Shown: positions 45,736-48,271 of the stretch, in pieces | Layout: each line of letters opens with the position of its first letter | Numbering within the stretch: the first letter of the stretch is position 1 | Source of the DNA: Escherichia phage tonnikala | Strand: one strand, 5' to 3' | Length of the DNA stretch: 51,277 nucleotides | Sequence record: NC_049817.1 | Made by a program: the position numbers and the translations under genes | The notes under the pieces: generated by a model | The model's input: the letters and a program-made list of their open reading frames with translations, nothing else | What the model was told of the DNA's origin: nothing | The model's database searches: none

Positions 45736-46791
45736 ATGAGTGATTTTAACGCCTACACTAGCGAAGAAATGAGCAATGAGCTTTATCATGATCCTAACGC
45801 GTGGACGGCTGAATACGTCAGCGGTTCCAGCTTGGCGGAGATTTACAGCACTTGCCCGGCGTACTGGAAGTACAAGCCTCGCCAGGAAACTAAGGCACTT
45901 GTTTTCGGTACGCAGTCGCATACCAATTTTGAAAGCAAGGAGTTATTCGAAAAAACATATCGCCGCGCACCGTCGCAGGATGATTTTAAAGATCTGATCA
46001 CAAGTCAAACGGCGTTAGCCTCAAAGCTGAAATCTTTTGGCCTGAAAGGTACAACGGGTAAGCAATACCCAGAATTGCTGGAAATGCTGTACAAGTGCGG
46101 TGAGGATCTCAATGTATGGTGGCTTATCGAAATGATGGCAGAATGCCAGGCCGCAGCGGACGGCGTGCAGTTAATCGACGCGAAAGATTATGATGCCTGT
46201 GTAGCGATGCGGCGCGTACTTGAGGCAATACCTGAGCATAATGCTTGCATGAATAGCCCAACCGCGCAGCGTGAAATGTCAATATTCGGGATCATCAATG
46301 GCGTAAAAGTTAAAGTGCGCCTTGATCACGTTGACGTAAACAAGGATGTAAAGGCCACAATCATTAACGGTTACGACGAAAAAGGCCGACCGATTTATGA
46401 AGAAGTCATCTATCCAGAAGCTGTGATTATCACTGACTATAAAACAACGGTTAGCGCAAATCCGGTTGACTTCCAGCGCCTGGCTTACAATCACGGCTAT
46501 TATCTCAAAATGGCTTTGCAGCATGATTTATTTAAAAAGGCGTATCCAGACGAGGAAAGGCCAGTAATTGTGAGATTGCTTGCTCAAGAGAAGAAAGAGC
46601 CTTACTTGCCGCTCGCATTCCGCATGAACATTGAGCAATTGAAGATCGGGCGTATCCAGTACATGAGCGTGATCAACAAGTTCAACGTTTGCCAACAGTT
46701 AGATGAATGGCCTTCGTATGCAAACGGGCAGCCAGAAATTGATCTTGATACTCCTGATTGGGTGCGCGCTCAATTCAGGCAGTATCTATGA
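45736..46791 (+). CDS. PD-(D/E)XK-family exonuclease (RecE/exonuclease VIII-like)
   Basis: 351 aa; D...E-x-K style core (VIITDYKTT); encoded just upstream of Erf and SSB. Confidence 0.5.
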   Translation: MSDFNAYTSEEMSNELYHDPNAWTAEYVSGSSLAEIYSTCPAYWKYKPRQETKALVFGTQSHTNFESKELFEKTYRRAPSQDDFKDLITSQTALASKLKSFGLKGTTGKQYPELLEMLYKCGEDLNVWWLIEMMAECQAAADGVQLIDAKDYDACVAMRRVLEAIPEHNACMNSPTAQREMSIFGIINGVKVKVRLDHVDVNKDVKATIINGYDEKGRPIYEEVIYPEAVIITDYKTTVSANPVDFQRLAYNHGYYLKMALQHDLFKKAYPDEERPVIVRLLAQEKKEPYLPLAFRMNIEQLKIGRIQYMSVINKFNVCQQLDEWPSYANGQPEIDLDTPDWVRAQFRQYL

Positions 46792-46866
46792 CAAACTAAA
46801 CAAATAGCTAAACTTTTATAATGGTTGGTGATATAATTCGCCAACCAGATAACGGGAGAATGAGAG

Positions 46867-47124
46867 ATGACAGATAAAGACAATGCCACATTATTGCATT
46901 TAGAGCGATTCATTGATCGAGTAACCATTGCAATGAAAGAATTTATTAAGCCGATGAACATTAAAGAGTCGGAAGAAATGAAGACTTACATCAAGGACGT
47001 GGTTGCATCCATTGACAACGTTATCCTTGTTGCAACGATGAGCAAGGGAAACAAAGAGCGCGAGAGATTGGTTGCTGAATCAACAGAAGAATTTATTAAA
47101 ATGCTTGAAAGCGAGAAGGAATAA
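46867..47124 (+). CDS. hypothetical protein
   Basis: 85 aa between exonuclease and Erf. Confidence 0.45.
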   Translation: MTDKDNATLLHLERFIDRVTIAMKEFIKPMNIKESEEMKTYIKDVVASIDNVILVATMSKGNKERERLVAESTEEFIKMLESEKE

Positions 47125-47127
47125 GAA

Positions 47128-47781
47128 ATGAAATTATCCGATCAGTTTGACAAAGTTTTGCCAGCATTGCACAAAGCGCGCAGCTTGTTTGTAAAGGTTA
47201 AAAAGGATCGCCAAAACAGCCATCTTAAAAACCGTTACGCTACGCTTGATTCAGTCCTAGATGCCATTACCCCAGCATTGATGGATAATGAGCTTATGAT
47301 TATGCAGGACGGCGAAAGAATTGATGTAAGCACGTTGCGAGTTGAAACCACCGTCATGCACGTTTCTGGCCAATGGGTGAAATTCTATTTTGATATTCCG
47401 ATCGTTAAAAACGACCCTCAAGGTGTAGGATCTGCTTTCACATACGGGCGTCGTTATTCTGCGGCTGCGGCCTTCGGGTTAAGCCAGGCTGACGATGACG
47501 CACAAATCGCAGTCAAAACAGTGAACGACTGGAAGCGCGATATTGAAAAATGCGAAAGCGTAGGAGAATTGCAAGAAGTCCTTAAAAACGCGTGGAAGTC
47601 AAGCGACGCGGCAAGCAAGCAAGTAATCCGCGATCACTATGAGAAGCGCAAGGCTGAAATTGAGATAGGCGGCGCGCGCGGATTTAATCCGGCAAAACCT
47701 AAAGAAAACCTAGCCAGCGACACCGTTGACACTCCAAATAGCGAGAAAGTAAAATCACAAAGTATCACTGACTTTGAATAA
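47128..47781 (+). CDS. erf: Erf-family single-strand annealing protein
   Basis: N-terminal region ([17 protein letters not shown]...) typical of Erf proteins; adjacent to exonuclease and SSB. Confidence 0.65.
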
Positions 47782-47786
47782 TAAAC

Positions 47787-47806
47787 GGGGCGCTTGCGCC
47801 CCTTTT
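47787..47806 (+). terminator. terminator-like hairpin
   Basis: GGGGCG-CTTG-CGCCCC then TTTTGTCA. Confidence 0.4.
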
Positions 47807-47824
47807 GTCATAGGAGAAAACAAA

Positions 47825-48271
47825 ATGCACGTTATTACAGGTGAGATCCGAAAAGAGCCAAAAGTAAAGCAAATGCCTAACGGTAGCACGCTATATGTTG
47901 TTGAGCTTTCCGAACGATATAAAGACCGTGAAGGCAATTGGCAGTATACAAACTATGTATTTTTCTTTAACGCGAAAACAGACGGCCTGAATGGTTGGTA
48001 TGCTGAGGCGTTCCAGGTAGGCAAGGTTATTTCTGTTTCCTGCGATACCTTGCGAGTTGAAACGCGAGAATACAACGGAAAGATTTACAGCACCGTGCAG
48101 CCTGGCGGATTTGCAAACTTGCTATTTAGCCAGCGTGGGGAAAGCCAGCAACAATATCAGCAGCGCACTCAAGGTGGATGGGGGCAACCACAACAGCAAC
48201 AAATCCCTCAACAGCAACCACAGCAAAGCAATCAGCCGCCGATTGACTTTGATGACGATATACCTTTCTGA
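47825..48271 (+). CDS. ssb: single-stranded DNA-binding protein
   Basis: OB-fold-like N-terminus, Gln/Pro-rich linker and acidic tip DFDDDIPF; AGGAG RBS before ATG at 47825. Confidence 0.8.
   Translation: MHVITGEIRKEPKVKQMPNGSTLYVVELSERYKDREGNWQYTNYVFFFNAKTDGLNGWYAEAFQVGKVISVSCDTLRVETREYNGKIYSTVQPGGFANLLFSQRGESQQQYQQRTQGGWGQPQQQQIPQQQPQQSNQPPIDFDDDIPF

Follow-up and report, generated by a model that had tools for sequence, protein, structure and literature searches.

A probable T1-like recombination cassette with its own SSB gene in Escherichia phage tonnikala

Known phage recombination genes and the tonnikala locus

The closest described counterpart of the locus analysed here, positions 45736-48271 of the Escherichia phage tonnikala genome (NC_049817.1; the whole stretch of 51,277 nucleotides that was analysed is referred to as the window), is found in phage T1. 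The T1 genes ST29, ST28 and ST27 encode an exonuclease VIII, an Erf-like annealing protein and a 'hypothetical protein' resembling an SSB (a protein that binds single-stranded DNA), in the same gene order, and the same cassette occurs in Escherichia phage FritzSarasin (bas04_0026-0029) and in phage SECphi27, where it contains the protein Gp77. Our analysis indicates, with a probability of roughly 0.88, that 45736-48271 is a conserved T1-like recombination cassette of the Drexlerviridae, in which an exonuclease and an annealase form a two-component recombinase that is accompanied by its own SSB. The cassette as such is already known: dozens of GenBank records carry an annotation of it, and the Erf protein has already been described both structurally and as a trigger of bacterial defence.

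Three other systems are useful for comparison. The tonnikala exonuclease resembles RecE of the Escherichia coli Rac RecE/RecT system (3H4R) in the fold of the C-terminal catalytic part, in the H...D...DxK residues and in having an annealase gene alongside, but it lacks the N-terminal part of about 600 residues, carries an inserted helical segment (about residues 80-145) and, at residues 199-228, a long beta-hairpin, and is partnered by an annealase of the Erf family rather than the RecT family. With lambda Red (Exo, Beta, Gam) the locus shares the logic of a 5'-3' exonuclease combined with a single-strand annealing protein, whereas the exonuclease and annealase families differ, the tonnikala cassette has its own SSB, and no Gam-like gene was recognised in it (orf85, the small gene described below, has no significant fold match in PDB). 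Lambda Red and the system of phage Stevie_ev116 have both been implicated as triggers of one Type VI retron; tests by co-expression were made with lambda Red, and the Stevie evidence is limited to mapped escape mutants. Salmonella phage P22 pairs Erf with Arf and the RecBCD-modifying proteins Abc1 and Abc2, and not with an exonuclease and SSB of its own. Its Erf belongs to the same Pfam family as the tonnikala Erf. The study of Zhang et al. (Nature 2026; PMC13017515) describes P22 Erf as a ring-shaped oligomer that is essential for growth and implicated in genome circularisation.

According to the open reading frame (ORF) listing, four plus-strand ORFs with good Shine-Dalgarno sequences occupy 45736-48271:

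45736..46791, plus strand: exo, putative RecE-like 5'-3' double-stranded DNA (dsDNA) exonuclease of the PD-(D/E)XK type (DUF3799); 351 amino acids; profile, fold and residue evidence
46867..47124, plus strand: orf85, acidic three-helix protein by AlphaFold2 (AF2) model; 85 amino acids; between exo and erf
47128..47781, plus strand: erf, Erf-family single-strand annealing protein; 217 amino acids; Pfam ERF match and identity to Gp77
47825..48271, plus strand: ssb, phage SSB; 148 amino acids; PHROG 44 match, domain layout and C-terminal tip

A first-pass annotation, made from the sequence alone, had described this region as a module of three genes. Its outer limits are exact, as judged from the ORF listing and from the boundaries of the coding sequences (CDSs) in FritzSarasin, but the module contains four genes, as orf85 had been missed.

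The genome is that of a Warwickvirus (Drexlerviridae, Tempevirinae). Positions 45300-48400 are 99.9% identical to FritzSarasin (Bas04; Drexlerviridae, Tempevirinae, Warwickvirus), whose annotation has identical CDS boundaries, and 95-98% identical to many other Warwickviruses, SECphi27 among them. Since the first 25 kb of the window align at about 98%, with gaps, to several Warwickviruses, the phage is a mosaic relative and not FritzSarasin itself. The four FritzSarasin CDSs are labelled, in order, 'putative exodeoxyribonuclease VIII', 'hypothetical protein', 'putative recombination protein' and 'single-stranded DNA binding protein', and the annotation of phage Sip carries the same four labels together with predicted terminators.

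The order exo-(orf85)-erf-ssb is common across the Drexlerviridae, including T1. The exonuclease and annealing protein genes are adjacent and co-oriented, as in a two-component phage recombinase, and the adjacency of exo and erf is retained in 66 of the 74 loci sampled, over a range of Erf identity of roughly 40-100%. The T1 proteins share 52-62% identity with the exonuclease, Erf and SSB of the window, and in T1 the cassette likewise lies between a Cor-like gene and a lateral tail-fibre gene. The promoter at its upstream edge, a promoter-like motif inside erf, a hairpin and a terminator, all described below, are also shared with T1; orf85 is lacking there.

The exonuclease, the annealing protein and the SSB

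The first-pass annotation had proposed a PD-(D/E)XK exonuclease, a proposal that would have failed had the predicted structure of the 45736..46791 product lacked the residues of a nuclease fold; both the fold and the residues are present. The protein matches Pfam PF12684/DUF3799 (PDDEXK-like) at 50.1 bits (E 3.9e-13; cut-off 26) and PHROG 412 'exonuclease VIII' with E 2.5e-96, and among the matches listed, all but two of 120 homologues carry the PF12684 annotation. An AF2 model built from a 46-sequence alignment reached a predicted local distance difference test score (pLDDT) of 91.9 and a predicted template modelling score (pTM) of 0.83. When this model was compared with PDB using Foldseek, the best match was the nuclease domain of E. 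coli RecE (3H4R; E 2.7e-8, target TM 0.68, identity 16%), and each of the other six matches at E<=0.001 either is a PD-(D/E)XK nuclease or includes a domain of that type (DinG, Exo5, the Cas4-family ACE1, AdnAB). The predicted fold is thus of the PD-(D/E)XK alpha/beta type and similar to that of the catalytic domain of RecE.

Profile alignment with hhalign against residues 606-866 of RecE from strain MG1655 (probability 94.5%, E 7.8e-8, 249 columns) places H62, D234 and K236 of the tonnikala protein directly on H652, D759 and K761 of RecE. D197, in the motif 'RLD', corresponds to RecE D748 ('RPD') only after a manual shift of the gap caused by the hairpin insertion (199-228). All four residues, H62, D197, D234 and K236, are invariant across the 46 homologues. 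The RecE catalytic residues are presumably H652, D748, D759 and K761 as numbered in the 3H4R paper, and these numbers agree with the numbering of the chain. The NCBIfam exonuclease VIII equivalog NF007259 (866 amino acids) scored 32.1 bits against a cut-off of 1269, with only profile positions 612-861 matched; since the equivalog cut-off is missed, the label 'exonuclease VIII' fits the catalytic domain only. By analogy with RecE, we consider that the protein would act as a RecE-like PD-(D/E)XK 5'-3' dsDNA exonuclease.

The Erf assignment of the first-pass annotation is confirmed by family membership and by near-identity to a solved Erf-like ring. The protein matches Pfam ERF (PF04404) over residues 14-132 with 72 bits (cut-off 25), as well as PHROG 155 and PHROG 2324 'Erf-like ssDNA annealing protein' (E 2.6e-44 and 3.1e-39, respectively; ssDNA, single-stranded DNA). 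It is identical to Gp77 of SECphi27 (PDB 9Y6U/9Y9C) at 216 of 217 residues: residues 1-198 are the same, and the sole difference is T199 in tonnikala for A199 in Gp77. An N-terminal ring-forming domain (residues 1-125) is followed by a C-terminal region (residues 126-217). Gp77 has a structure like that of P22 Erf and forms, via residues 1-125, a ring of 24-fold symmetry and about 600 kDa, as resolved by cryo-electron microscopy (PMC13017515), so that the tonnikala protein, given its identity to 9Y6U/9Y9C, is expected to form a large ring oligomer as well. Gene 77 of SECphi27 is essential even in single infection, and its deletion is rescued in trans (PMC13017515). We found no report of ssDNA binding or annealing by Gp77 in the sections consulted of the same study. 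In the T1 record, ST28 is annotated to start 11 residues early (MHLIHQSGEVK; 31484-31516 of our locus L005); no relative has these residues, and the conserved start of the T1 Erf is the next methionine, MQLSPE.

The product of ssb, which the first-pass annotation had also named as part of the module, matches the phage SSB family PHROG 44 with E 4e-26 over its full length and with E 1.8e-16 for residues 1-105 alone, which comprise the oligonucleotide/oligosaccharide-binding (OB) part, and it matches SSB structures in PDB at E 2e-5. Its predicted layout is that of an SSB, with an N-terminal OB-type domain, a glutamine/proline-rich (Q/P-rich) linker and an acidic C-terminal tip. The last eight residues, DFDDDIPF, are exactly those of E. 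coli SSB, and the tip is kept in the other six intact Drexlerviridae SSBs that were compared. Judged from its sequence, the protein is a member of PHROG 44, divergent from cellular SSB to the point of falling below Pfam and NCBIfam cut-offs (see below). The seven residues at the end of SSB are recognised by RecT-type annealases (bioRxiv 10.1101/2020.04.14.041095). With a tip identical to that of the host protein, the phage SSB is probably able to interact with the partners of host SSB, and the tip may couple it to the annealase or to host partners.

The start of ssb is the ATG at 47825, which is annotated and conserved and has GGAGAA in front of it; all homologues open with MH(V/I)ITGEIRKEP. 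The TTG at 47774, which would give the longest ORF, was rejected: it has no ribosome-binding site, overlaps the erf stop and crosses a GC hairpin. The SSB CDS of Shigella phage 2019SD1 (NC_049820; 3485-3913 of our locus L008) is divergent beyond about residue 47 and subsequently has its own N-terminal sequence a second time; this record looks like a frameshift or duplication artefact.

The accessory gene, the transcription signals and the surroundings

The AF2 model of the orf85 product is a three-helix bundle (pLDDT 92.5), and the GC content of the gene is 37.6%, against about 46% in its neighbours. The gene is found in synteny between exo and erf in Tlsvirus, Henuseptimavirus and Hanrivervirus (the Tempevirinae genera that were sampled in addition to Warwickvirus) and in one Klebsiella phage; the Warwickvirus protein has a C-terminus about six residues shorter than in the other genera, where it ends ...KH. 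It is absent in T1, where the gap between exo and erf is 41 bp as annotated, and in 33 of 65 IMG/VR loci that contain exo and ssb, while it is present in the other 32. In two contigs whose Erf is 100% identical to the tonnikala Erf (as rounded by tblastn) orf85 is precisely missing, and in both the spacer downstream of exo leads directly to the erf ATG. From this distribution we conclude that orf85, an insertion between exo and erf, is accessory and dispensable.

Searches with orf85 gave no match in Pfam, NCBIfam or PADLOC, and the PHROGs search returned a single, mislabelled family, 11265. A word-index homologue search found five clusters with the single sequence and 177 with a profile, none with a Pfam domain, and an exhaustive hidden Markov model search of 1.84 billion representatives found 27 clusters, consisting of small proteins plus two long ones matched via short repeated stretches. 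The best Foldseek match in PDB had an E-value of 1.7, which is not significant, small helical proteins being hard cases for such searches; in BFVD, matches were confined to the protein's own uncharacterised family. These searches lend no support to a Gam-, Abc2- or gp5.9-like fold, structures of which we take to be present in the fold library. The label of PHROG 11265, 'tail length tape measure protein', was rejected for a protein of 85 amino acids within a DNA-metabolism cassette. It is widespread for this family in RefSeq/Pharokka annotations of Drexlerviridae (for example at 2456-2746 of locus L003 and 2462-2746 of L004), and it is an error propagated through PHROGs that should be corrected. 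The true tape measure protein is likely the 893-amino-acid ORF at 35371-38052, judged by its size and its position in the tail-gene block.

It is doubtful, though conceivable, that orf85 is a functional fourth component of the cassette, whether as an adaptor or regulator of the exonuclease, Erf or SSB, or by inhibiting a nuclease or defence system of the host directed at recombination intermediates, in a Gam/Abc-like role with an unrelated fold. Because orf85 comes and goes among near-identical phages, an accessory counter-defence gene fits better than a core enzyme.

The following features are predicted around and within the cassette:

45240..45735, no strand: AT-rich non-coding 'second divergent hub', 496 bp, between divergent genes
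45678..45705, plus strand: putative promoter P_exo, TTGACT-16 nt-TACAAT, placed 30 nt upstream of the start codon of exo (ATG); 10 of 12 consensus positions
46823..46847, plus strand: inverted repeat (GGTTGGTG / CGCCAACC) around an extended -10-like sequence, TGATATAAT, in front of orf85/erf
47726..47755, plus strand: putative promoter P_ssb, TTGACA-18 nt-TAAAAT, within the 3' end of erf; 11 of 12 consensus positions
47787..47802, plus strand: GC hairpin GGGGCG-CTTG-CGCCCC with TTTTGT behind it, immediately after the erf stop; terminator-like in a scan
48273..48300, no strand: bidirectional intrinsic terminator between ssb (plus strand) and the lateral tail-fibre gene (minus strand)

The hub lies between a minus-strand gene for a Cor-like lipoprotein, which ends at 45239, and exo, and has a GC content of 31.7%, against 44.8% for the whole window. 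At its exo edge, 47 of 63 distinct upstream regions from related phages, including that of T1, have a motif TTGAC(T/A)-16-TAnnAT at the position of P_exo, and transcription of the cassette probably starts at this conserved sigma-70-type promoter. The hub also contains an exact 11-nt direct repeat, TGTATGTATAT, at 45441 and 45541 (100 nt apart), and several imperfect inverted repeats, and some annotators have called tiny ORFs in it (BubbaBully). An Rfam scan of 44000-48500, hub included, found no family above threshold.

The cassette itself contains two further elements. Downstream of exo, a conserved box, AAATAGCTAAAC, precedes the inverted repeat at 46823-46847 (box and repeat together span 46805-46847). 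The arms of the repeat surround TG(A/T)TATAAT, an extended -10, and TGnTAnAAT occurs in 35 of 59 distinct exo-downstream regions. The arms co-vary, with both sides changed in six of eight pairs, and none of 500 shuffles reached the observed covariation score. This element may act as an RNA hairpin, or else as a promoter overlapped by an operator.

The second element is P_ssb. In nearly all relatives its motif (TTGAnn-18-TAnAAT) has the same position, exactly 56 nt ahead of the end of the erf stop codon, although the spacer diverges. The valine codons within the hexamers are GTT and GTA, each in 47 of 47 distinct erf genes, although valine codons elsewhere in erf are mixed; the codon following GTA is NAA in all 47, whereas nearby conserved serine, glutamine and phenylalanine codons vary synonymously. 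Such frozen synonymous sites point to selection on the DNA itself, and the element inside erf is probably a separate promoter for ssb. With two conserved promoter-like elements inside it, the cassette is probably not one simple operon. The proposal of the first-pass annotation that the module is driven from the second divergent hub therefore holds as far as the hub and the conserved P_exo are concerned, but leaves out these internal elements.

The hairpin after erf is annotated as a terminator in phage Sip. By visual reading, it is kept at this position in all clades, with stems that differ between clades, and the T-tract that follows it is limited to Warwick- and Hanrivervirus. With the T-tract missing in most genera, a plain intrinsic terminator is not generally tenable. 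The hairpin would sit about 25 nt into a transcript starting at the promoter inside erf. The terminator at 48273-48300 has a 12-bp stem with seven GC pairs and A and T runs at its flanks, and equivalents are annotated in T1 and Sip; sub-threshold Rfam leader and small RNA matches at this site are terminator look-alikes.

To the left of the hub, three minus-strand genes (44069-45239) encode a 'membrane associated protein' (PHROG 425), an 'outer membrane protein' (PHROG 557) and the Cor-like superinfection-exclusion lipoprotein (lipobox LTGC, PHROG 1119). In T1 the genes with the first two labels, ST31 and ST32, follow the J-like gene on the plus strand; the pair, matched by annotation label only, thus appears inverted relative to T1. 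At the right end of the window, a 126-amino-acid ORF (50889-51269, minus strand) is the C-terminal part of a DNA primase (PHROG 510) that is cut by the edge. This ORF differs from the 128-amino-acid SECphi27 protein described as the Mokosh trigger.

Proposed mechanism, competing explanations and phage defence

By analogy with RecE/RecT, lambda Red and P22 Erf, from which we infer what the enzymes do, in which order and on which biological substrate, the cassette may act as follows. The RecE-like nuclease would resect dsDNA ends in the 5'->3' direction, giving 3' single-stranded tails, which would be covered by the phage SSB. A ring of Erf, a 24-mer in the near-identical SECphi27 protein, would then bind ssDNA and anneal complementary strands. 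In a terminally redundant genome that is packaged by the headful mechanism, annealing of the redundant ends would circularise incoming DNA and build the concatemers required for packaging. This is likely the essential role of the cassette, and it would explain the essentiality of the Erf gene in SECphi27. Pugh and Ritchie reportedly described, in 1984, concatemer genetics of T1 involving 'grn' and the recE pathway, on which we do not rely. The T1 record has an annotated terminal repeat of 2.8 kb, and T1 and Rtp-like phages use headful packaging from concatemers (PMC8421802).

The identities of the genes and the fold and catalytic residues of the nuclease are supported directly, as are the ring, the essentiality and the defence-trigger role of an Erf that differs by one residue. 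Several observations nevertheless weigh against reading the locus as a two-component recombinase with its own SSB. In the literature consulted, we found no measurement of nuclease, annealing or ssDNA-binding activity for any exonuclease, Erf or SSB of the Drexlerviridae, and the authors of the RAZR study term Gp77 a 'putative recombinase' (PMC13017515). K258 and Q262 are invariant in the exonuclease clade, whereas RecE has Q and Y in 'QDAFY'. The SSB scores below the cut-offs of Pfam PF00436 (17.2-18 bits against 26) and of NCBIfam TIGR00621 (23 against 53.95 bits) and PRK09010 (34.7 against 260 bits; E 1.6e-8), and hhalign of its OB part with E. coli SSB gives a probability of 30% from a shallow alignment. 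Finally, the promoters are predicted from conservation of their motifs.

Among the alternatives, the best supported is that the cassette is primarily a replication module, in which a replicative SSB works with the neighbouring primase and helicases while the exonuclease and Erf serve recombination-dependent initiation or restart. We regard this as possible but not probable. The primase gene fragment (PHROG 510) lies just downstream on the other strand, where FritzSarasin also has an annotated DNA primase; ssb appears to have a conserved promoter of its own, apart from exo and erf; and an annealing protein that is required even in single infection (PMC13017515) would suit such a role. A replication module, however, overlaps with a recombination cassette and does not exclude it, the adjacency of exo and erf together with joint exo and rec escape mutations is the signature of a two-component recombinase, and terminal redundancy offers a natural substrate for annealing.

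The second alternative concerns the SSB, which might be mainly a decoy whose host-type tip titrates or redirects host proteins that bind SSB. An eight-residue tip identical to that of E. coli SSB and kept in the phage group would agree with this, as would an OB domain that resembles cellular SSB weakly. We nevertheless consider it quite improbable: the OB part matches the phage SSB family on its own, the full-length layout of OB domain, Q/P-rich linker and acidic tip is that of a normal SSB, and a decoy role would supplement ssDNA binding rather than replace it.

Least probable is an exonuclease that works independently of Erf, in degradation of host DNA (T1-type phages degrade host DNA) or in counter-defence, next to erf for historical reasons: internal promoter-like elements could uncouple the expression of the two genes, but their adjacency persists in 66 of 74 loci down to roughly 40% Erf identity, the catalytic domain is specifically of the RecE-like type that partners annealases, Retron-Vpa2 escape mutations hit both genes, and T1 has another candidate nuclease in ST16, a 'DNA repair exonuclease' by annotation.

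The escape mutations come from phage Stevie_ev116, in which mutants escaping Retron-Vpa2 carry changes in the exo and ERF-family rec genes of one operon, in the same way as lambda escapees from this Type VI retron map to exo and bet (bioRxiv 10.1101/2025.10.22.683967). As Stevie is a member of the Drexlerviridae and carries the orf85 family, we regard its operon as homologous to the tonnikala cassette. The ring of Gp77 is a scaffold for the assembly and direct activation of the defence RNase RAZR, the escape substitutions S19R, S31R and D41Y have been described, and the C-terminal region, which contains position 199, is dispensable for activation (PMC13017515). All residues named for the Gp77-RAZR interface or for escape (S19, L20, V22, S31, D41, D53 and E55) are unchanged in the tonnikala Erf; with the interface loop 19-41 and D53/E55 intact, the protein is predicted to be a trigger of RAZR (PD-T7-4). 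The remark in the first-pass annotation that such modules trigger bacterial defences is thus borne out by Gp77, and by the Stevie mutants. No report of restriction of this particular phage by RAZR was found in the sections consulted of PMC13017515. The preprint of Stokar-Avihail contains no SECphi27 escape mutation in the recombination cassette, the Mokosh trigger being a different, 128-amino-acid protein. Avs21 senses ERF-family annealases, according to a preprint.

The conserved promoter-like elements inside the cassette and the variable accessory gene refine the picture of the recombination genes in a model phage group, which includes phages of the BASEL collection and the SECphi phages. 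Judging by its Erf, tonnikala should be sensed by RAZR, and it may also be sensed by Avs21, through its ERF-type annealase, or by Type VI retrons, through its pair of exonuclease and annealase.

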